Shown here one piece after another: positions 1 through 7,708 of a DNA stretch of 17,584 nt. This DNA comes from a virus. A model generated the notes under the pieces. It searched no databases. It saw only the letters and a list, made by a program, of their open reading frames with translations, and was not told the origin of the DNA. How positions within the stretch are numbered: the first letter of the stretch is position 1; every line of letters begins with the position of its first letter. Where the stretch lies: the IMG/VR virus record IMGVR_UViG_3300029827_000114; one strand, written 5' to 3'. The translations under genes and the position numbers were made by a program.

Positions 1-2
1 TA

Positions 3-194
3 ATTTTAGCTGAAGCTATTATGCATGATTTGGAACCTAGATTTCTTGATACACCCAAAGAGTGGATAAGTGAACGTGATGGTTTAGTATGCAGTAATGA
101 AGATTTGAAGGATTTTGAAAGAATTAGTTTGGATTCTGAATTGTCAGCTTTGAATTTTTGGAACAGGAGTATTGCGAACTCGAGTTCGTTGTAA
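3..194 (+). CDS. 3' end of an upstream CDS entering the window (partial), hypothetical protein
   Basis: Frame 3 is open from the window edge to TAA at 192-194 and is not in the supplied track. Its last codons span the first GCGAACTCGAGTTCG palindrome. No homology recognised. Confidence 0.3.
   Translation: MLAEAIMHDLEPRFLDTPKEWISERDGLVCSNEDLKDFERISLDSELSALNFWNRSIANSSSL
174..188. promoter_or_regulatory. Palindrome copy 1 (GCGAACTCGAGTTCG); Cheo/LexA-box-like CGAAC-N4-GTTCG
   Basis: Read directly: perfect inverted repeat, core CGAACTCGAGTTCG at 175-188. It lies about 20 nt upstream of the ATG at 210. Confidence 0.5.
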
Positions 195-209
195 AGAAGG
201 ATATATAAA

Positions 210-503
210 ATGGAATGGATAGGTGTTGATTTGGATGGGACATTGGCTGAGTATGATAAATGGCGTGGTCCTTCTCATATAGGTAAGCCTATTTCTAAAA
301 TGGTTGATAGAGTAAAAAGATGGCTTAAGGATGGAAAGGATGTTCAGATTTTAACAGCTAGAGTTCATAAGGATAATCCTGGTAAAGTTGAATCTGAATT
401 GGCGATTAATTTGTGGACTAAAAGAGTCTTTGGAAAATCGTTAAAGACTAGAGCTGATAAAGATTTGAATATGATTGAATTATGGGATGATAGATGTATT
501 TAG
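210..503 (+). CDS. Small HAD-superfamily phosphatase-like protein (possible 5'(3')-deoxynucleotidase type)
   Basis: N-terminal VDLDGTL (HAD motif I DxDGT), ILTAR (motif II Thr), a downstream Lys, and C-terminal ELWDD (motif IV DD), all within 97 aa. RBS AAGAAGGA upstream of the ATG. Confidence 0.55.
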   Translation: MEWIGVDLDGTLAEYDKWRGPSHIGKPISKMVDRVKRWLKDGKDVQILTARVHKDNPGKVESELAINLWTKRVFGKSLKTRADKDLNMIELWDDRCI

Positions 504-531
504 TTGCTTACTAATACTGGAGAAAGAGTTG

Positions 532-735
532 ATGGTAAAGAATAAAGTAATTATATCTTGGGAAATAGATGATTGTAAGATGTGTCCAAACTATAGGTTA
601 TCCCGTGGTATACATCAATGTAGTCTTAATATTGCATGTATGTTAAAAGTTAAATTTACTGTAAAAGATATGGTAAATGTTATTGAAATACCAATTCCAG
701 ATGAATGTCCATTACTTGAGGTAAAACAGGATTGA
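532..735 (+). CDS. Hypothetical small Cys-containing protein (start trimmed to ATG 532)
   Basis: ORF 475..735 overlaps the previous gene. The in-frame ATG at 532 follows GGAG (519-522) with a 9-nt spacer. CxxC plus an additional Cys suggest possible metal binding. Confidence 0.4.
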   Translation: MVKNKVIISWEIDDCKMCPNYRLSRGIHQCSLNIACMLKVKFTVKDMVNVIEIPIPDECPLLEVKQD

Positions 736-757
736 GAAAGTAAGATGAGGTTATAAG

Positions 758-1012
758 ATGGCTGTTTTTTATGAAGAACATGAAAAACCAACAAGAATAT
801 TTAGTTTTAAAGATACTATTGGTGATTTTCATTTTATTGATTTTACATTAATTTATAGAATAAGTATTCATGAAAATTGTGCGTCTGATTCATCTGATGT
901 ATCTATATTTTGGAATTTTAAAATTACTGGATTAATTAAAACTGAATTTAAGACAAGTAAAGATAGTGCAAAAAAAATAGCTAATGCATGGTGTATGTAT
1001 ATTAAGAGGTAA
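758..1012 (+). CDS. Hypothetical protein
   Basis: 84-aa ORF with GAGG upstream; no recognisable motif. Confidence 0.4.
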   Translation: MAVFYEEHEKPTRIFSFKDTIGDFHFIDFTLIYRISIHENCASDSSDVSIFWNFKITGLIKTEFKTSKDSAKKIANAWCMYIKR

Positions 1013-1016
1013 TTAA

Positions 1017-1283
1017 ATGAATGAAGATGACAGTAAGTTATCTATAGTTAAAAAAAGTAATGATAGTGTTGAGTTGTTTAGTTTATCTGCAATTTATACT
1101 CAAGATGCAGATTCTTGTAGTAATGAAACATGTCATGAATTGGAATTGAAGACAGATGATGCAGGTGGCGGAATGTATTATGTTTTATCTACGAAAAGAT
1201 GGGCTTTTGAAAGTGTTGATGAGATAGTAGGTATAATTGAAGATTTTCTGAAAAGAGTAAAGGATGGTGAGAATTATGATTGA
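1017..1283 (+). CDS. Hypothetical acidic protein
   Basis: 88-aa ORF starting 4 nt after the previous stop; no recognisable motif. Confidence 0.4.
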   Translation: MNEDDSKLSIVKKSNDSVELFSLSAIYTQDADSCSNETCHELELKTDDAGGGMYYVLSTKRWAFESVDEIVGIIEDFLKRVKDGENYD

Positions 1284-1554
1284 AATTATGAGTAAAATTA
1301 AATGTATAAAATGTGATTATATGGCTAAAGATATAGAGGATATGATGTGTCATATTGAAAAAGAACATGTTGATGTGTTTAATATGATTGAATCTATTAA
1401 GAATGTTGATCCAAATGAAAGAGGTAAAAAAATTGCTAGTGTTATTGAAGAAATGTTAGGAGAAAAGATTCATGGAAATATTAATTATGATTCTCTTAGT
1501 GATATGTATGCTTTAAATGGTATATGTTCAATATTGGAATTGATTGTTTATTAA
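1276..1554 (+). CDS. Hypothetical protein with C-x2-C-x12-H-x4-H spacing
   Basis: The track ORF starts at 1264, but the in-frame ATG at 1276 follows GGTGAG. The sequence CIKCDYMAKDIEDMMCHIEKEH has C2H2-like spacing, which may be coincidental. Confidence 0.35.
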   Translation: MIEIMSKIKCIKCDYMAKDIEDMMCHIEKEHVDVFNMIESIKNVDPNERGKKIASVIEEMLGEKIHGNINYDSLSDMYALNGICSILELIVY

Positions 1555-1577
1555 TATATATAATAAGGAGAGTAGTT

Positions 1578-2105
1578 GTGGTTAAACCTGAGATTAAGCC
1601 GGAATGGGTTGAAAAGTATACTGATTCATTTGCATCACATTTAAGATATTATCGGCAGGCTGCTGATAAACTTGGTGTGGATAAATCACTTGTGCTGATT
1701 CATGATAATTCAAAAAGTATGCATGAAGAATTTCCTTGGTATGTAAGGAGATTTGGTGGTGAGATTAAAGATGATCCTGAATGGTTGGCTGCTTGGAATC
1801 ATCATATTCATAATAATCCTCATCATTGGGAATATTGGATAACACCAGGTGGTAATAATGAACCCAGTACAATATTGCCAATGCCAGAAAGATATGTGTT
1901 AGAAATGGTGGCAGATTGGATGGGGTCTGGGCGTGCATATACTGGTGATTGGGATATGACAGATTGGTTAAGTAGAAATTTGTCAAGGATAAAAATTCAT
2001 AACAAGACAAGAGGACATGTTGAGAGAATTTTAGTTGATAAGCTTGGTTATGAGAGACAGGATATGATGTTATGGGGATTGGATTGTAGGGCAGCTAAAA
2101 AATGA
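1578..2105 (+). CDS. Hypothetical protein, possible HD-domain metal-dependent phosphohydrolase
   Basis: The track ATG at 1524 lies inside the upstream gene. GTG at 1578 follows GGAG (1567-1570) with a 7-nt spacer. Motifs His (ASHLRYY), HD (LIHDNSK), later His cluster (HHIHNNPHH) and Asp (MVADWM) are in HD-domain order. Weak call. Confidence 0.35.
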   Translation: MVKPEIKPEWVEKYTDSFASHLRYYRQAADKLGVDKSLVLIHDNSKSMHEEFPWYVRRFGGEIKDDPEWLAAWNHHIHNNPHHWEYWITPGGNNEPSTILPMPERYVLEMVADWMGSGRAYTGDWDMTDWLSRNLSRIKIHNKTRGHVERILVDKLGYERQDMMLWGLDCRAAKK

Positions 2106-2171
2106 ATGGTTTTTTGTCGGGTATTTGGGGTTGTAAAGAGGGTAGTTGTTTATTGTTAGAAGAGGATACTA

Positions 2172-2897
2172 ATGAATAATTTTATTGTATTTGAAGGTAT
2201 TGATGGTGTTGGAACTACAACACAATCATATATGATGTATGAATATTTAAAAGATTTGATTGGAAAGAATCAAGTTGTATGGACAAAAGAACCAACTGAT
2301 TGTTGTATTGGACATTTAATACGAGAGATTTTAGGTGGTACAGAAGAGAAGCCTTCTGGTAATGCCATGGAATTACTGTTTAGAGCAGATAGAATAGACC
2401 ATGTTGAGGATTTTATAAGACCAAAGATAGAGGAAGGGAAATGGGTTATTTGCGATAGATATTATCCTTCAACACTTGTGTATCAAGGAATTCAAAATAC
2501 TATGTTAGATAGTATAAAGCAGATGAAGCGTATGTTTTATCATTTTATTGATAATGATGGAATTGTTATTCCTATTTTAACAATTATTTTAGATGCTGAT
2601 GTTGATATTTGTCAGAGCAGAATAAAAGATAGGGATATTCATCGTGAAATTTATGAAGATATAGAATTTCAATTAAAGGTAAAAGAATTGTATTTAGAGT
2701 GGGCTAATGTCGATTGGGATAGAATAGCTGGGGCACATGGTAAAACTGATGAAATTATTTATCCATGGAATAAGAAAATAGTTGTTGATGCGAATGGAAG
2801 TGAAAAAGAAGTTCATGATAGATGTAAAAAAGTATTATGTGATGTTTTATCTGATGCTTTAGGTATCGATTGGAACAGTTTAGAAGGTATAAAATGA
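2172..2897 (+). CDS. Thymidylate kinase-like (dNMP kinase family) protein with atypical P-loop
   Basis: FEGIDGVGTTT matches the Tmk P-loop EGxDGxGKTT except Lys is replaced by Thr. The CDRYYPSTLVYQG motif (Tmk DRY...YQ) and an Arg-rich lid-like segment (QSRIKDRDIHRE) are present. Confidence 0.6.
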   Translation: MNNFIVFEGIDGVGTTTQSYMMYEYLKDLIGKNQVVWTKEPTDCCIGHLIREILGGTEEKPSGNAMELLFRADRIDHVEDFIRPKIEEGKWVICDRYYPSTLVYQGIQNTMLDSIKQMKRMFYHFIDNDGIVIPILTIILDADVDICQSRIKDRDIHREIYEDIEFQLKVKELYLEWANVDWDRIAGAHGKTDEIIYPWNKKIVVDANGSEKEVHDRCKKVLCDVLSDALGIDWNSLEGIK

Positions 2898-3457
2898 AAT
2901 ATTCTGTTTATGCAAAAGTTATTGGAAGTAAATATTTGGGTGAGGTAGAAGCTTCTAGCGAAAAAGAGGCCATTGAAAAAGGTTGGGAATTAGACGAAGC
3001 TTGCGTTTGTCTTTGCCATCAGTGTTCTTCGGAATGTGAAAACCCAGAAGTAGGTCATATATCTGTTGTTCAGCATGGAGATGAGGATAATGGGGATTTT
3101 GATAAGAGTGGTGTTGAGTTAATAGCAGATGAGAGAAGAAGGCAGATTGAAGAAGAGAAGTATAGTTTAGAACATGATAGATCTGTTAATAAATGTGGTC
3201 AACTGTCTTGGGCAGCTATTGCATATGCTGCACCCGGAAGAGTATACAGAAGAATGGGATTAGGAGAATCTAATTTTAAGTTTGTTGACCCGTTTCCTTG
3301 GGATATTCAGTATGATGTTAGACTTAGAACGAGGAAGGCAGATAGAGGGAGTTTTTGTCCTTCTGAATATGAAAAAGAGGAGAGGATGAGTTTGTTGATA
3401 AAAGCTGGTGCTTTGATTGCTGCAGAGATAGATAGGTTGAACAAATGGCAGAAGTAA
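2894..3457 (+). CDS. Hypothetical Cys-rich protein
   Basis: The ATG at 2894 overlaps the upstream stop as ATGA, with GAAGG upstream. Cys cluster CVCLCHQCSSEC. Any resemblance to MazG-like pyrophosphohydrolases is speculative. Confidence 0.45.
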   Translation: MKYSVYAKVIGSKYLGEVEASSEKEAIEKGWELDEACVCLCHQCSSECENPEVGHISVVQHGDEDNGDFDKSGVELIADERRRQIEEEKYSLEHDRSVNKCGQLSWAAIAYAAPGRVYRRMGLGESNFKFVDPFPWDIQYDVRLRTRKADRGSFCPSEYEKEERMSLLIKAGALIAAEIDRLNKWQK

Positions 3458-3699
3458 AAGATGGGTTAGAAGTACTTTCTAGGGTTTCTGGTGTTCCTAA
3501 AAAGGAAGTTGATGAGATATGGCAGAGAGTAAAAGAAAATAAAGCCAGGTTAGATTCTTGTGAACTTCCTCATGATTTTTATCCGATAAATGAGAATGGT
3601 AGGTTACCAAGAAAAGCTGTATGCAAGAAGTGTCTTGGTGTTGTTGATATAACTAATGCTAGATTTTATATACAAGGTTTAAGAGATGCAAAAGGATGA
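3445..3699 (+). CDS. Hypothetical protein
   Basis: 84-aa ORF overlapping the upstream gene by 13 nt. Confidence 0.4.
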   Translation: MAEVKDGLEVLSRVSGVPKKEVDEIWQRVKENKARLDSCELPHDFYPINENGRLPRKAVCKKCLGVVDITNARFYIQGLRDAKG

Positions 3700-3868
3700 A
3701 GAAAAGGTTCATATTTGTACATGGGAAGACCCATGGACACCTGAAAAATCTAAGAGAGCACAGCATCCATTTGCAAAATGTGTATTTGATGGTGGTTGGG
3801 AACAAGAATACGAGAGATATGAATGTCCGTGTTGTGGCAAGAGATATAAAGTAGATATTCCTGGTTAG
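3686..3868 (+). CDS. Hypothetical Zn-ribbon mini-protein
   Basis: 60-aa ORF with C...C...CPCC. Confidence 0.4.
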   Translation: MQKDEEKVHICTWEDPWTPEKSKRAQHPFAKCVFDGGWEQEYERYECPCCGKRYKVDIPG

Positions 3869-3885
3869 GAATGGAAGGATAGAAA

Positions 3886-4092
3886 ATGAAAGAGAAGAGG
3901 ATGAGGGATGAAGATAGATTAATTGGAATAGCTTTTGATGATAAGTATGATGATAATTGTCCATGTTTTCATGTATTTGAAAATAAAGATGATTTGATAG
4001 AATTTATTGGTGATTATAAAGATGAAATTGGAGAATATTCTGTATATAAACTAGAAAGAATTTTTTTAGACAAAGATAGAATTTTACATTAA
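3886..4092 (+). CDS. Hypothetical acidic protein
   Basis: 68-aa ORF with GGAAGG upstream. Confidence 0.4.
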   Translation: MKEKRMRDEDRLIGIAFDDKYDDNCPCFHVFENKDDLIEFIGDYKDEIGEYSVYKLERIFLDKDRILH

Positions 4093-4103
4093 CAAGGAGA
4101 TGA

Positions 4104-4991
4104 ATGATGAAGGTTTTTTATCACAGGGATGCTGACGGTAAATGTGCTGGGTATATTGCTAGGAATTTTATTACTAAGGGAGATATAGTAGGATTAGGTT
4201 CATCAGTAGAATGTATATCCATAAATTATAATGAAGAATTTCCGATTGATAGAATTAGGGAAGATGAGGGGGTTGTTATTGTTGATTTTAGTCTTAATCC
4301 AGATGTTATGTCAGATTTGGTTAAAAAAACACATAATGTGATATGGATTGACCATCATATAAGTGCCATAGAAAAGCTTGATTCCTTTAAGCATGTTCGT
4401 GGTTTAAGGTCTGTTGATTTTTCAGGTTGTGAACTGACTTGGTTGTATTTTCATGATAAAATTGAGGGGCATAATATAAAAATAAAAGAAAAATTGCTAG
4501 AGTTTTGTCCGAAATCGTTTCGTTTGATTGGTGATAGGGATGTGTGGCGGTTTCAATATGGAGATGAATCAAGATGGTTTAATGAGGCTTTTAAATTGAT
4601 GGGTTCTCCATGTCCTGAAGATGAAGAAGCTTGGGAAAAATTGACTTTTCAGACTGATGAATTGTTAAAAAATGGAAAGTTGCTTTGTGAACATACTGCT
4701 ATGATAAATAAAGCATTTACAGATACTTGGGCATATGAAGCTTATTTAGAGGGGTATAAGATACTTGTATGTAATTCTGCTATTTCTGGGGCTGAAATAT
4801 TTGGAGATAGAGTAAAAGATTACCCTTTTGTAGCTGTATATTGTCATAACGGTAAGAATTGGACTACATCGCTTTATTCTATACAGATGGATGTATTAGA
4901 GATAGCTAAAAGATGTGGTGGTGGGGGTCATCCAAGGGCTTGTGGTTTTACATCAGATGAAGTTCCTTTTGAAAGGATTTATAAAATATGA
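4104..4991 (+). CDS. DHH/DHHA1 phosphoesterase (NrnA-like nanoRNase / pAp phosphatase family)
   Basis: DHH motifs in order: HRDADG (I), VIVDFS (II), IDHH (III). C-terminal GGGGHPRACGF matches the DHHA1 GGGH motif. AAGGAG at 4094-4099; the start is probably ATG 4107 (ATG 4104 is also possible). Confidence 0.7.
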   Translation: MMKVFYHRDADGKCAGYIARNFITKGDIVGLGSSVECISINYNEEFPIDRIREDEGVVIVDFSLNPDVMSDLVKKTHNVIWIDHHISAIEKLDSFKHVRGLRSVDFSGCELTWLYFHDKIEGHNIKIKEKLLEFCPKSFRLIGDRDVWRFQYGDESRWFNEAFKLMGSPCPEDEEAWEKLTFQTDELLKNGKLLCEHTAMINKAFTDTWAYEAYLEGYKILVCNSAISGAEIFGDRVKDYPFVAVYCHNGKNWTTSLYSIQMDVLEIAKRCGGGGHPRACGFTSDEVPFERIYKI

Positions 4992-5155
4992 ATTGTGAAA
5001 AAATAGAGATGTCACAGGAAGAAATTAATGATCGTTTGAGAATGTTAAATGATAGACTTCCATTAGAAGTTAGAGAAGATTTTGAATATAGGTTTATTGG
5101 ATATAAAAAATGTGATGGTGTTTTTACAGCAACATTTGGAATTTATAAAAAATGA
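4988..5155 (+). CDS. Hypothetical small protein (55 aa), not in track
   Basis: ATG 4988 overlaps the DHH gene stop as ATGA. The open frame runs to TGA 5153-5155. Confidence 0.3.
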   Translation: MNCEKIEMSQEEINDRLRMLNDRLPLEVREDFEYRFIGYKKCDGVFTATFGIYKK

Positions 5156-5288
5156 TAAAATAGGAATAGATGATGACCTTTATGATGATGAGGATGATCC
5201 TTGTATAAAGTGTCGGTTTAGATATACAAAAATTTGTTGGTTTTTAGGATGTATAAAGAGAATAAAGATTAGATATGTATGTTGTTAG
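5115..5288 (+). CDS. Hypothetical Cys-rich mini-protein (start uncertain; track gives TTG 5082)
   Basis: A different frame from 4988..5155 and overlapping it. Contains a poly-Asp stretch then CIKC...C...C. Which of the two overlapping ORFs is expressed cannot be decided from sequence. Confidence 0.3.
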   Translation: MVFLQQHLEFIKNDKIGIDDDLYDDEDDPCIKCRFRYTKICWFLGCIKRIKIRYVCC

Positions 5289-5715
5289 TTGGATATCGTT
5301 TGATGATGCTGTTAAAAGTAATAATTTTTATTATTTGAATTTTGGTGGTTGGTTTGGAATAAATGATGATAAACAATATACAGGAAAAAGATGTGATTTT
5401 AGGGCGAGGCATAGGTGGTGTGATTATATTGATAGATCACCCAATGATATTGAGTTATATCTGGAGGCAATAAGAGTTTCTGTTGTTGATAAATATGTTT
5501 CAGTTGATAAGGCAATGAAACATAATGGAATATATCATCAAAGATATAAAGATGGTGTTCCTTTGTTTTCTGATGGTAAAGCAGGTGTGTTTTCTAGAAA
5601 TGCTTGGGGTGATTTGATGGCTGCAATTTGGACTGAAGTTAGTATAGAGAATGATATTGATTCATATAATGAATTTGGTTTGTGTGCTCAATATTGTTAT
5701 TATGATTTTAGATGA
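5275..5715 (+). CDS. Hypothetical protein
   Basis: 146-aa ORF; no recognisable motif. Confidence 0.45.
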   Translation: MYVVSWISFDDAVKSNNFYYLNFGGWFGINDDKQYTGKRCDFRARHRWCDYIDRSPNDIELYLEAIRVSVVDKYVSVDKAMKHNGIYHQRYKDGVPLFSDGKAGVFSRNAWGDLMAAIWTEVSIENDIDSYNEFGLCAQYCYYDFR

Positions 5716-5727
5716 AAGGTGATTAGG

Positions 5728-6138
5728 ATGTGTGATGAGATAAAGAATAATAAGTTTAGTACTACTTTATTTAAACTTATAGAAGCAGAAGAAGAAGTTA
5801 AGATAGTTTGGAAAAAAGTGAGAGAGGATATAATAAAATGTATTGGTGTTGAAAATATTATATTGAAAATGATTGATATGTGTTTTGATAATTTTATTCA
5901 AATGGTAACAGCATTAAGAATTTATCATGATGATGATGGTAAATGGTTTATGAAGTGTGGAGATGAAATAGAGTCTATTCCTATTTATGAAGGTTTTGAA
6001 TTGAATATTGAACATTTTATTTATGAACAAGCATATAATATGTTGCAAAGGAAATTTAATAGATCATTTTTTATGATAGATCAAGTTTTGATAAATTTTT
6101 ATGAAAATATGGGCAATAAAAAAGCAGATTTGGTATGA
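5728..6138 (+). CDS. Hypothetical protein
   Basis: GTG 5719 or, more likely, ATG 5728 preceded by GGTGA with a 5-nt spacer. Confidence 0.45.
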   Translation: MCDEIKNNKFSTTLFKLIEAEEEVKIVWKKVREDIIKCIGVENIILKMIDMCFDNFIQMVTALRIYHDDDGKWFMKCGDEIESIPIYEGFELNIEHFIYEQAYNMLQRKFNRSFFMIDQVLINFYENMGNKKADLV

Positions 6139-6446
6139 AAAATATAATAGATGGTGTTAATAGTGTTGAGAATGAAATCATGGCTAAACTAATTAATAAT
6201 ATTAAGATTGATATGGATATCTTGGTTTTAGAAGCGATAAATAAGATTATTAATGTGTTTTTTGAAGATAAGTTGGTGTTGAGTGAAGTTAGAGATAGGA
6301 TTACTGTTGGTTTTGGTCCTGGAAGATCTGAGAATGTTTTATTTAAAAATATTGTTTTTTTAGATAAGGTACCGATGATTGAAGTAGTTCTTATGAAAGA
6401 AGATAATAAGATGTTTTTAAAAAAACGTTTGGTAGAATTAGTATGA
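6135..6446 (+). CDS. Hypothetical protein
   Basis: ATGA stop/start overlap with the upstream gene. Confidence 0.45.
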   Translation: MKNIIDGVNSVENEIMAKLINNIKIDMDILVLEAINKIINVFFEDKLVLSEVRDRITVGFGPGRSENVLFKNIVFLDKVPMIEVVLMKEDNKMFLKKRLVELV

Positions 6447-7150
6447 ATTGGCATTCTATTATATTTTCAGGGAAAATGGTTAGAGCAATTATTGCTGAAA
6501 AGAAGAGTCAAACCAGAAGAGTTTTGAAAAAACAACCTAAAGTTGTAGTGGATGGTAAAGTCCCATATACATGGGAAGTATCTGGTGGTGATTTTTCTAA
6601 AAGTAAAATTTTGAAATGCCCATATGGAAAACCAGGGGATTTTCTATGGGTAAAAGAAAAATATGCGTTATCTTTATGTGACCCAGAAACACCAGAAGAA
6701 GATAGAGATATAAAGAATTCCTATATATGGGATCATCCAGTATATGCAGCAACAGATAAGGGTGGAGAATGGTGCATGGAAGAGGTAGTAGATGAAATTT
6801 TGATTTCTAAGCCAATTGATGCACCATGGAGAAATCCTGTTTTTATGCCTAGATGGGTATCTAGGATTTATTTGAAAATAGTTAATGCTGACCTTAAAAG
6901 ACTTCATGATATTTCAGAACAAGATATTATTGATGAAGGAATATTTTTGCCTCCTTTGTATCTTGGAGCAATTAATGGTGAGCCAGTAGAGAATGATTCT
7001 TGGTGGGATGCTGAACGAAAAGAGATGAAAGACCCATGGTCGTTTTTTTCTGAAGAATGGGACATTATAAATGCTAAACGTGGATATCCATGGAAAGAGA
7101 ATCATTGGGTTTGGGTTGTAAAATTCAAGATACATGAGATATTTAAGTAA
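6443..7150 (+). CDS. ASCH/PUA-like domain protein (putative)
   Basis: ATGA overlap. N-terminal HSIIFSGKMVRAIIAEKKSQTRR resembles the ASCH N-terminal beta-strand/GKK..R signature. The C-terminal 120 aa is unassigned. Confidence 0.45.
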   Translation: MNWHSIIFSGKMVRAIIAEKKSQTRRVLKKQPKVVVDGKVPYTWEVSGGDFSKSKILKCPYGKPGDFLWVKEKYALSLCDPETPEEDRDIKNSYIWDHPVYAATDKGGEWCMEEVVDEILISKPIDAPWRNPVFMPRWVSRIYLKIVNADLKRLHDISEQDIIDEGIFLPPLYLGAINGEPVENDSWWDAERKEMKDPWSFFSEEWDIINAKRGYPWKENHWVWVVKFKIHEIFK

Positions 7151-7163
7151 TTAGAAAAAAGTG

Positions 7164-7190
7164 TTGACAAAGCATTTTTTAGGCTATAAC
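7164..7190 (+). promoter_or_regulatory. Sigma-70-like promoter (TTGACA ... TATAAC)
   Basis: Perfect -35 TTGACA at 7164-7169 and TATAAC at 7185-7190 with a 15-16-nt spacer, about 50 nt upstream of ATG 7243. Confidence 0.45.
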
Positions 7191-7242
7191 TTGTGTCTAG
7201 GATACGGTTTGAGATTGCCGTTTTATCACAAGGAGAAAAAAG

Positions 7243-7491
7243 ATGGATATTGTCAAGCTTATCAAAGAAAGAGGTAGAGTAGATATAGAGGAAAAGGAAG
7301 GAAAGCTTTTGATTCTAAGGAGTTTGATGATAAGTGGAACTGGAAAGGTTATGTTGAGAGAAACATATGTTGCTAAGAATGGGGAGGTAGTGCTTGATTG
7401 TGTTGAAATGGGGGAATCTAGAGAGAGATTGGTAAAGCAGGAGGATGTTTCGTGGGAAAAGATGGAGATTGGTTTAAGGATGGGGTGTTAG
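7243..7491 (+). CDS. Hypothetical protein
   Basis: AAGGAG followed by ATG. The stop codon abuts palindrome copy 2. Confidence 0.45.
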   Translation: MDIVKLIKERGRVDIEEKEGKLLILRSLMISGTGKVMLRETYVAKNGEVVLDCVEMGESRERLVKQEDVSWEKMEIGLRMGC

Positions 7492-7506
7492 CGAACTCGA
7501 GTTCGC
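7491..7506. promoter_or_regulatory. Palindrome copy 2 (GCGAACTCGAGTTCGC, 16-bp perfect)
   Basis: Read directly. It overlaps the last base of the TAG stop of the upstream gene. Confidence 0.5.
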
Positions 7507-7623
7507 AAGAAATAGTTTCAAAATGTAAAGGATTATATTTTAGATATATAATGAAAATAATGATGAACATAATTTTGATTTATCTTATCATGATGATATC
7601 GTTTTAAAAATAAATGGTGAGTG

Positions 7624-7663
7624 TTATCCGTTGAAGAAAAACTAATAATAGTTTTACGGATAA
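7624..7663 (+). promoter_or_regulatory. Stem-loop in the leader of the vault-protein gene
   Basis: TTATCCGT (7624-7631) pairs with ACGGATAA (7656-7663), and inner AAAACT (7638-7643) pairs with AGTTTT (7650-7655). No downstream T-run. Confidence 0.35.
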
Positions 7664-7708
7664 GAGTTTAAATTGGCTGAAAAGCTGTTGGCAAAAAGGA
7701 GATAAATA

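Follow-up and report, generated by a model that had tools for sequence, protein, structure and literature searches.

The gene under study lies in IMG/VR virus record IMGVR_UViG_3300029827_000114, a stretch of 17,584 nucleotides (hereafter the window) that is AT-rich and carries every gene on the same strand; all window coordinates given below are on this (+) strand. An open reading frame (ORF) at 4104-4991 (295 codons plus stop, TGA at 4989-4991) encodes a DHH/DHHA1 phosphoesterase, and this frame agrees exactly with that described in a first-pass annotation of the DNA. The protein adds a divergent new member to a viral family that is already known and catalogued; the functional hypotheses that exist for this family are predictions. 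Judged from its sequence, it is apparently a complete, catalytically competent enzyme.

Two ATG codons are available at the 5' end of the gene, at 4104 (giving 295 aa) and at 4107 (giving 294 aa). A Shine-Dalgarno-like AAGGAG (4094-4099), read from the sequence, precedes both, with a spacing of 4 nt to the first ATG and 7 nt to the second. The second ATG is probably the true start, given this 7-nt spacing, the MK.FYH with which homologues begin, and the 294-aa length of a 97%-identical homologue (P0001). At the 3' end, the ATG of a 55-aa ORF (4988-5155) overlaps the DHH stop codon (ATGA), an arrangement consistent with translational coupling; this small ORF is kept only in the closest relative (contig L006), and neither a Pfam nor a PHROG match was found for it. 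A promoter and terminator scan of 3300-5400 returned no signal above shuffled expectation, so the DHH gene appears to lie inside a polycistronic array.

Conservation was called from an alignment of 44 homologues (32-89% identity). The N-terminal DHH catalytic domain (approximately residues 1-150, 4104-4553) was delimited by a Pfam DHH match over residues 4-133, by the secondary structure of an AlphaFold2 (AF2) model and by fold matches. Motif I (H7-R-D9-A-D11-G12, HRDADG, residues 7-12, 4122-4139) carries the metal-binding DxD and is followed by motif II (VVIVD61FS, 4272-4292), by motif III with the eponymous DHH (W81-I-D83-H84-H85, 4344-4358, all five invariant), by a family-specific G100-L-R102 (4401-4409) that is not conserved in the alignment to Bacillus subtilis NrnB, and by motif IV (G-D144-R-D146-V-W148, residues 143-148, 4530-4547). 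Invariant in all 44 sequences were H7, D9, D11, G12, D61, W81, D83, H84, H85, G100, R102, D146 and W148, together with G273-H276 of the C-terminal domain; D144 was conserved in at least 90% of them.

A helical linker (approximately residues 151-209, 4554-4730; helices 154-165, 174-182 and 184-209 in the DSSP assignment of the AF2 model) leads to the C-terminal DHHA1 domain (approximately residues 210-295, 4731-4988), where Pfam DHHA1 matched residues 241-285 and PDB profile matches covered residues 237-288. This domain contains the strand W253-T-T-S-L-Y-S259 (4860-4880) and the DHHA1 signature G272-G-G-G-H276 (4917-4931), which is followed by P-R278. The protein stops 19 residues past GGGH and has no C-terminal extension. 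The first-pass annotation had reported all DHH motifs and the DHHA1 GGGH motif as present, and both observations were confirmed.

The AF2 model built on the 44-member alignment (predicted local distance difference test 94.9, predicted template modelling score 0.86) shows two alpha/beta domains joined by the helical linker, which is the architecture of the DHH/DHHA1 branch. The best 50 Foldseek matches in the PDB all belonged to the DHH superfamily, led by 6mtz, an uncharacterised Helicobacter pylori protein (E 1.8e-13), then by mycobacterial and staphylococcal NrnA, TmPDE, Rv2837c and GdpP, with further matches to a PAP phosphatase, DhhP, archaeal and bacterial RecJ, and PggH. Structural comparison figures were 13.9 for 6mtz, 12.6 for RecJ-Cdc45, 11.8 for the PAP phosphatase, 11.7 for PggH, 11.6 for MSMEG NrnA, 11.4 for GdpP and 9.1 for NrN; the TM-scores were modest because the orientation of the two domains differs. 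Profile matches to the DHHA1 regions of solved enzymes reached E values down to 6e-8. Both Pfam matches fell below their gathering scores (DHH, PF01368, E 1.4e-5, 25.8 bits versus 28.1; DHHA1, PF02272, E 1.7e-3, 19.2 bits versus 25.9). These matches are real, the sequence is divergent, and membership rests on motifs and fold; many homologues carry precomputed PF01368 or PF02272 matches.

The ratio of nonsynonymous to synonymous change (dN/dS) was 0.21-0.23 against a syntenic relative with 76% protein identity, indicating that the gene is under purifying selection. The viral setting assumed by the first-pass annotation was borne out by PHROG families that match many window ORFs, by the single-strand gene arrangement, by relatives in IMG/VR and by two syntenic metagenomic contigs.

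Placement of the protein among DHH/DHHA1 enzymes

The first-pass label for the protein was NrnA-like. Sequence and model features instead argue for the NrnB-type (COG2404) branch, and the protein is not specifically NrnA-like. The Arg-rich RxRxR strand of the NrnA DHHA1 domain has a role in phosphate binding. Residues 253-259 align to this strand (HMMER alignment to 8iu7), with IRCRLRSK of Staphylococcus aureus NrnA opposite WTTSLYSI of the window protein; all three Arg are gone, and the consensus of the viral family at this strand is WxVSLYS. The NCBIfam NrnA equivalog NF053633 scored 14.2 bits versus a cutoff of 350 and covered the GGGH region only. The same loss of RxRxR separates the window protein from the wider group acting on pApA and pGpG (B. 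subtilis NrnA, S. aureus NrnA/Pde2, Mycobacterium tuberculosis CnpB (Rv2837c), Thermotoga maritima TmPDE, Vibrio cholerae PggH and Borrelia burgdorferi DhhP), in which the catalytic DxD lies at approximately residues 20-30 rather than at 9-11. Motif IV likewise differs, being DxW in the window protein and DTG in S. aureus NrnA.

NrnB proteins (COG2404; B. subtilis YngD, H. pylori, B. thuringiensis; PMC10570053, PMC12709177) are likewise stand-alone DHH plus DHHA1 proteins, and share with the window protein an HxDxDG within the first 12 residues, IDHH, a D-x-W motif IV and GGGH. The Joint Genome Institute name [quoted passage not shown], i.e., COG2404, was attached to at least 10 homologues at 34-53% identity. 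When the family profile was aligned to B. subtilis NrnB using hhalign (98.7% probability, E 4.3e-16, 260 columns), HNDLDG at the extreme N-terminus, IDHH and GGGH were aligned, and YDTWEW fell opposite RDVWRF. The NrnB query sequence was compared with the NrnB papers in three respects (399 aa, K285, RYLRRKKR at 205-212) and agrees with them. The best PDB match of this query was 6mtz (E 1.2e-8), which also ranks first in the structural comparison with the window protein and is the probable structural representative of NrnB. The D-x-W form of motif IV is GDRDVW in the window protein, YDTWEW in NrnB and VDIWD in 6mtz, whereas S. aureus NrnA has GDTGRF. Against this placement, plain hmmsearch with the family profile favours NrnA-type chains (E 6e-8 to 1e-5) over 6mtz (6e-3), mainly via the GGGH region.

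Identity to NrnB is only about 23%, and the viral family has invariants of its own (R102, W81) and is found mostly on viral contigs and metagenome bins. The window protein lacks the C-terminal extension (>100 aa) and the RYIRRKxR basic patch of NrnB clade A; the segment aligned to the patch is not basic. At NrnB position 285, which is Lys in clade A and Asn in clade B, the window protein has Arg (R278), and the viral family has mostly Gly (Gly in 27 of 44, Arg in 12 of 44). The label proposed from these comparisons is therefore NrnB-like, and is not extended to any published NrnB clade.

The closest catalogued family is phrog_4771, "DHH phosphoesterase" (E 4.6e-45, 155 bits, residues 4-293 on profile positions 20-292 of 363). 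Known members include Pseudomonas phage EL gp125, a "DHH family protein" of a Vibrio anguillarum H20-like phage, and phosphohydrolases of Erwinia phage PhiEaH1, Ralstonia phage RP12 and Pseudomonas phage PaBG. The window protein is <30% identical to all of these cultured-phage proteins and lacks the N-terminal extension of approximately 120 aa found in EL gp125. Compared with GdpP, it has no N-terminal transmembrane, PAS or degenerate GGDEF modules, its DxD starting at residue 9.

Family distribution and genomic neighbourhood

A search of 5.8 billion proteins returned 228 homologues at E <= 1e-3 (best 1.5e-199), and a profile search of 1.84 billion cluster representatives (50% identity) returned 20,889 matches at E <= 1e-3, 4,081 of them at E <= 1e-30. 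Homologues were found by tblastn in 55 phage genomes at 24-28% identity, including the Pseudomonas EL group, Ralstonia jumbo phages, Brevundimonas and Caulobacter phages, and 25 Vibrio anguillarum H20-like temperate phages. Among BFVD predicted viral structures, the best matches (E 3e-20 to 1e-15) comprised jumbo-phage phosphohydrolases (PhiEaH1, RP12, PaBG, ME3, Y3) and those of giant eukaryotic viruses (Klosneuvirus, Marseillevirus, Pithovirus, Lausannevirus, Hokovirus). Pattern scans confirmed at least 280 relatives in IMG/VR (280 of the first 600 pattern matches) and at least 43 in species genomes (43 of 600; 185,579 species, one genome each), the latter nearly all in metagenome bins and at <=35% identity over the full gene; the two counts are only roughly comparable, coming from the first 600 matches each and from partly different patterns. 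Together these results are consistent with a family that is mainly viral, or at least strongly represented in viruses.

No record of the exact window protein was found in public assemblies, and a megablast search with the complete window found nothing among 50,697 phage records, so the phage is not a known isolate. Synteny was seen with two metagenomic contigs, L006 (protein 97% identical) and L001 (protein 76% identical). In L001, DUF5662, thymidylate kinase, small ORFs and DHH follow one another as they do in the window, and ThyX lies further upstream.

Host assignment from species genomes was dropped, since the loci (at least 43) were all at <=35% identity and nearly all in metagenome bins. 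One 89%-identical homologue, labelled Lokiarchaeota, comes from a binned contig of 1.4 kb, and another, at 35% identity, comes from a contig binned as Borrarchaeum (L100); these archaeal labels are probably the result of mis-binning. Within the window, a 60-aa ORF (13966-14148) has a bacterial type IV prepilin-like N-terminus (KRG/FTLVELMIVLIILG) and a 204-aa ORF (14189-14803) has a lipoprotein-like signal (LCVLFVGC), and these two signals argue for a bacterial host.

Gene context was surveyed by calling and clustering ORFs in 89 loci, which fell into 42 context lineages. No neighbour family occurred in more than 23 of the 89 loci, and those 23 represented one lineage. A fixed two-gene system or conserved operon partner was thereby ruled out, and the absence of a recurrent partner across lineages marks the DHH gene as a free-standing accessory gene. 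Among 100 flanking proteins taken from 41 lineages and searched against Pfam, nucleic-acid metabolism predominated, with ResIII, DEAD, SNF2, UvsW and DnaB helicases, DNA methylases, thymidylate synthase, RNase H, RtcB, CCA-adding enzyme, NYN, and HNH and GIY-YIG endonucleases.

Upstream of the DHH gene the window encodes a DUF5662 protein (1524-2105) and a thymidylate kinase (2172-2897; PF02223, E 3.8e-36), the latter with a counterpart at 2747-3472 of L001. With ThyX of L001 included, this region looks like a nucleotide-metabolism block. L001 also carries a faint QueC-like match.

An RlaP-family nucleotidyltransferase (PF10127, phrog_388, "RNA repair pathway") was found 2-3 genes from DHH in two IMG/VR lineages that are independent of each other; it lies upstream of DHH in one of them and downstream of it in the second. 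The regions containing both genes (L048 3615-6891, L039 2653-6906, L071 6004-9107) represent at least two lineages besides that of the window. In L048 (3615-6891), the genes for RlaP, for a CCA-adding enzyme that has an HD domain, and for DHH form an unbroken, tightly packed row, and such a cluster may be an RNA-end repair module. The window has its own RlaP-type nucleotidyltransferase at 14839-15819.

In Pseudomonas phage EL (L005 4641-6552), the DHH gene is gp125; RNase H flanks it on one side and gp126 on the other, with a NAD-dependent ligase just upstream. The product of gp126 is annotated as "RNA ligase" and matched Pfam Acb1, an anti-CBASS 2H phosphoesterase (42.9 bits versus a cutoff of 27), CBASS being an antiphage signalling system based on cyclic oligonucleotides. 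NUDIX and cytidylyltransferase-like genes lie near the DHH gene in an SPbeta-like lineage. A second neighbour common to distant lineages is the phrog_874 protein (6443-7150, E 6e-45), 1.5 kb downstream of DHH in the window; it clusters with P2_0018 of Vibrio phage P2 (L004 8540-9205, "RNA binding protein, PUA domain-like"), which is 1.7 kb downstream of the DHH gene of that phage.

The C-terminal parts of longer homologues were unrelated to one another and contained a GIY-YIG/NUMOD homing endonuclease, a family 2 glycosyltransferase, a crAss001_48-like domain or an AAA fragment. Domain fusions were not used as a functional clue, being inconsistent and probably representing neighbouring genes or mobile endonucleases. 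P0153 (528 aa) is among these long homologues, whose additions are either fused or mis-joined. GIY-YIG/NUMOD in long homologues, taken with HNH and GIY-YIG genes recurring as neighbours, suggests that the DHH gene is a frequent landing site for mobile endonucleases.

Proposed function and rival explanations

The product is most likely a minimal stand-alone NrnB-type DHH/DHHA1 phosphodiesterase, predicted to be metal-dependent and probably to use Mn2+. We hold, with middling confidence, that it is a virus-encoded exonuclease of the nanoRNase type that acts on short linear oligonucleotides in nucleotide recycling and nanoRNA clearance. In such an enzyme, the Asp and His residues of motifs I-IV would hold two metal ions in the DHH domain, and the DHHA1 domain with its GGGH loop would shut over a short substrate lying between both domains. 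Short linear oligonucleotides, most probably 2-5-mers, would lose nucleoside monophosphates (NMPs) one by one, and digestion would most probably proceed from the 3' end, as it does in NrnB. The breakdown of leftovers from host RNA and DNA degradation, abortive transcription and primer removal would thus be completed, the NMPs and deoxy-NMPs would return to the pool for phage DNA synthesis alongside the action of the neighbouring thymidylate kinase, and nanoRNA build-up would be prevented.

NrnB proteins of three clades degrade short RNA in the 3'-5' direction (Myers et al. 2025, PMC12709177), and NrnB proteins lacking C-terminal elements or a long extension prefer short RNAs (PMC12709177). The window protein, too, lacks an extension. 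The homologues in giant eukaryotic viruses speak for a general role in nucleic-acid or nucleotide metabolism and against one bound to bacterial immunity. Of the two roles offered by the first-pass annotation, nucleotide salvage is the better fit to the local context, given the thymidylate kinase 1.2 kb upstream and ThyX in the syntenic relative; degradation of immune signals drew no direct support here, and that idea is already in print as a 2021 prediction.

Several points weigh against the nanoRNase interpretation. Hosts already have Orn, NrnA or NrnC, and the need for a phage copy is assumed. The thymidylate kinase link is confined to the lineage of the window itself, and occurrence as a lone accessory gene across 42 lineages is also typical of counter-defence genes. 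The invariants R102, W81 and W148 and the lost Arg-rich strand could point to a different substrate. Literature searches found no assayed phage DHH/DHHA1 enzyme, only the 2021 comparative-genomics prediction.

In that prediction, the DHH phosphodiesterases of a few jumbo phages were proposed to act against signals of SMODS/CBASS and type III CRISPR (Iyer et al. 2021, PMC7824862). The corresponding rival explanation here is a counter-defence hydrolase of a CBASS, Pycsar (an antiphage resistance system built on pyrimidine cyclases), type III CRISPR or related signal, acting either directly or by finishing the linear products of another phage nuclease. Such a hydrolase is unlikely here, and the evidence divides as follows. 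Within the superfamily, GdpP and CnpB act on cyclic di-AMP (c-di-AMP), and the CRISPR-associated DHH protein NrN hydrolyses S-adenosylmethionine-AMP (SAM-AMP) (Chi et al. 2023, PMC10600005), from which it follows that small DHH enzymes can be narrowly signal-specific; GdpP and NrN structures are both among the fold matches. The family is abundant on viral contigs and spread as a lone accessory gene, EL gp125 adjoins the Acb1-matching gp126, and the NUDIX and cytidylyltransferase-like genes of the SPbeta-like lineage fit the same idea. Against this stand the NrnB homologues of three species, the nearest characterised relatives, none of which (0 of 3) cleaves c-di-AMP (PMC12709177), and NrN itself, which leaves pApA and the cyclic oligoadenylates cA2-cA6 uncut (PMC10600005). 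Structural kinship to NrN (PMC10600005; PDB 9lq9) and to MAD is also distant, weaker than that to nanoRNases. Hosts encode both proteins, in linkage with CorA or type III loci, and MAD is membrane-anchored, whereas the window protein is soluble, viral and without CRISPR context. MAD is a membrane-associated, CRISPR-associated DHH-DHHA1 nuclease that acts on cyclic tetraadenylate (cA4). The proven phage anti-signal enzymes have unrelated folds (2H in Acb1, metallo-beta-lactamase in Apyc1, DUF1874 in AcrIII-1); they have no sequence or structure similarity to the window protein and only a hypothesised role in common with it, and a Pfam scan of the DHH protein found no Acb1 or other phage anti-signal nuclease domain. 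The Acb1-like neighbour occurs in only 1 of 41 lineages, a PADLOC scan of the protein matched no defence model, and the homologues of giant eukaryotic viruses are hard to square with a bacterial-immunity target. We also consider it doubtful that the viral clade as a whole is a dedicated counter-defence enzyme and not a housekeeping nanoRNase, a proposal that cites its NrnB-like character, minimal C-terminus, lost Arg-rich strand and gained invariants R102 and W81. Under that proposal the enzyme would have one of two roles. It would hydrolyse an immune signal, be it a cyclic oligoadenylate, cGAMP or a conjugate of the SAM-AMP type (possibly after an Acb1-like nuclease has acted, as in EL), or it would join an RlaP-type nucleotidyltransferase and a CCA-adding enzyme in trimming and rebuilding tRNA 3' ends that host toxins have damaged.

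RNA 3'-end healing or trimming in phage tRNA or RNA repair, in which the DHH enzyme would trim or dephosphorylate damaged ends (e.g., from host tRNA-targeting toxins) for a CCA-adding enzyme, an RlaP-type nucleotidyltransferase or a ligase, is quite unlikely. The proximity of RlaP in two independent lineages and the consecutive genes of L048 speak for it, as do the adjoining RtcB, NYN or 2H phosphoesterase genes of other lineages, the RlaP and a fragmentary polynucleotide kinase (PNK)/HAD-like ORF (210-503) in the window, and the ability of NrnA-type enzymes to remove 3'-phosphates as well. NrnB proteins are themselves 3'-5' exoribonucleases, but the window protein lacks the C-terminal basic extension that NrnB-A needs for action on long RNA (PMC12709177); moreover, the RlaP gene of the window is 10 kb and 18 genes from DHH, and the association, taken as a plain count, occurs in a minority of lineages. 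A RecJ-like exonuclease on single-stranded DNA, or a flap or primer-removal nuclease in phage replication or recombination, is improbable. The weak NCBIfam matches were to archaeal RecJ N-termini, the EL gene sits amid the NAD-dependent ligase, RNase H and other replication genes, and helicases, DnaB among them, are common neighbours. However, those equivalog scores were 17-18 bits versus cutoffs of 360-550, and the motif architecture is overall nearer NrnB. Compared with RecJ and archaeal RecJ-Cdc45, the two core domains fill all 295 aa, leaving no oligonucleotide/oligosaccharide-binding (OB) fold, CID-type insert, other DNA-binding module or RecJ extra domain. A dedicated phosphatase for pAp (3'-phosphoadenosine 5'-phosphate), a substrate named for this enzyme family, is highly improbable, as the Arg-rich DHHA1 strand of pAp-binding NrnA-type enzymes is lost, no sulfur-assimilation genes lie nearby and a viral gain from such an activity is hard to see.

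Other features of the window and meaning for viruses

An 879-aa protein (7709-10348) is a homologue of the eukaryotic Major Vault Protein (MVP), with a Pfam MVP shoulder match (E 3e-24) and a weak Vault_3 repeat. Its residues 494-863 matched PDB MVP chains (E 5e-15) over the C-terminal repeats, shoulder and cap helix region, and no PHROG match was found for it. Viral MVPs have been described in gut phages (2023 preprint, bioRxiv 10.1101/2023.11.10.566534). A 172-aa protein (16956-17474) has a SocA/Panacea antitoxin domain (PF13274, 27.5 bits versus a cutoff of 25.7) and may be a phage-borne toxin neutraliser. The 97-aa ORF at 210-503 gave weak PHROG matches to polynucleotide kinase and haloacid dehalogenase (HAD) phosphatase (E 1e-7 to 2e-7) and has an N-terminal DxD-type motif; it may encode a small phosphatase of the HAD type or, alternatively, a truncated PNK phosphatase domain.

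Base composition across the window (1-17584) was A 0.346, T 0.322, G 0.239 and C 0.093, with a GC skew of +0.31 to +0.61 in each 1-kb bin, an extreme strand asymmetry. At third codon positions of all 12 long ORFs, C made up 0-6% and G 14-26%, such that the coding strand is almost without synonymous C. Mutational bias, DNA modification and deamination pressure are possible causes.

For the window, the practical result is a corrected annotation, NrnB-type and not NrnA-type. The family to which the protein belongs is large and frequent in viruses, among them temperate Vibrio phages, jumbo phages and the giant viruses of eukaryotes. The last step of RNA and DNA recycling is essential in many bacteria. 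If the nanoRNase function is true, large viruses bring their own enzyme for this step, which could limit nucleotide supply during infection. If the protein instead degrades immune signals or repairs tRNA ends, it would represent a new enzyme class in the phage counter-defence repertoire.

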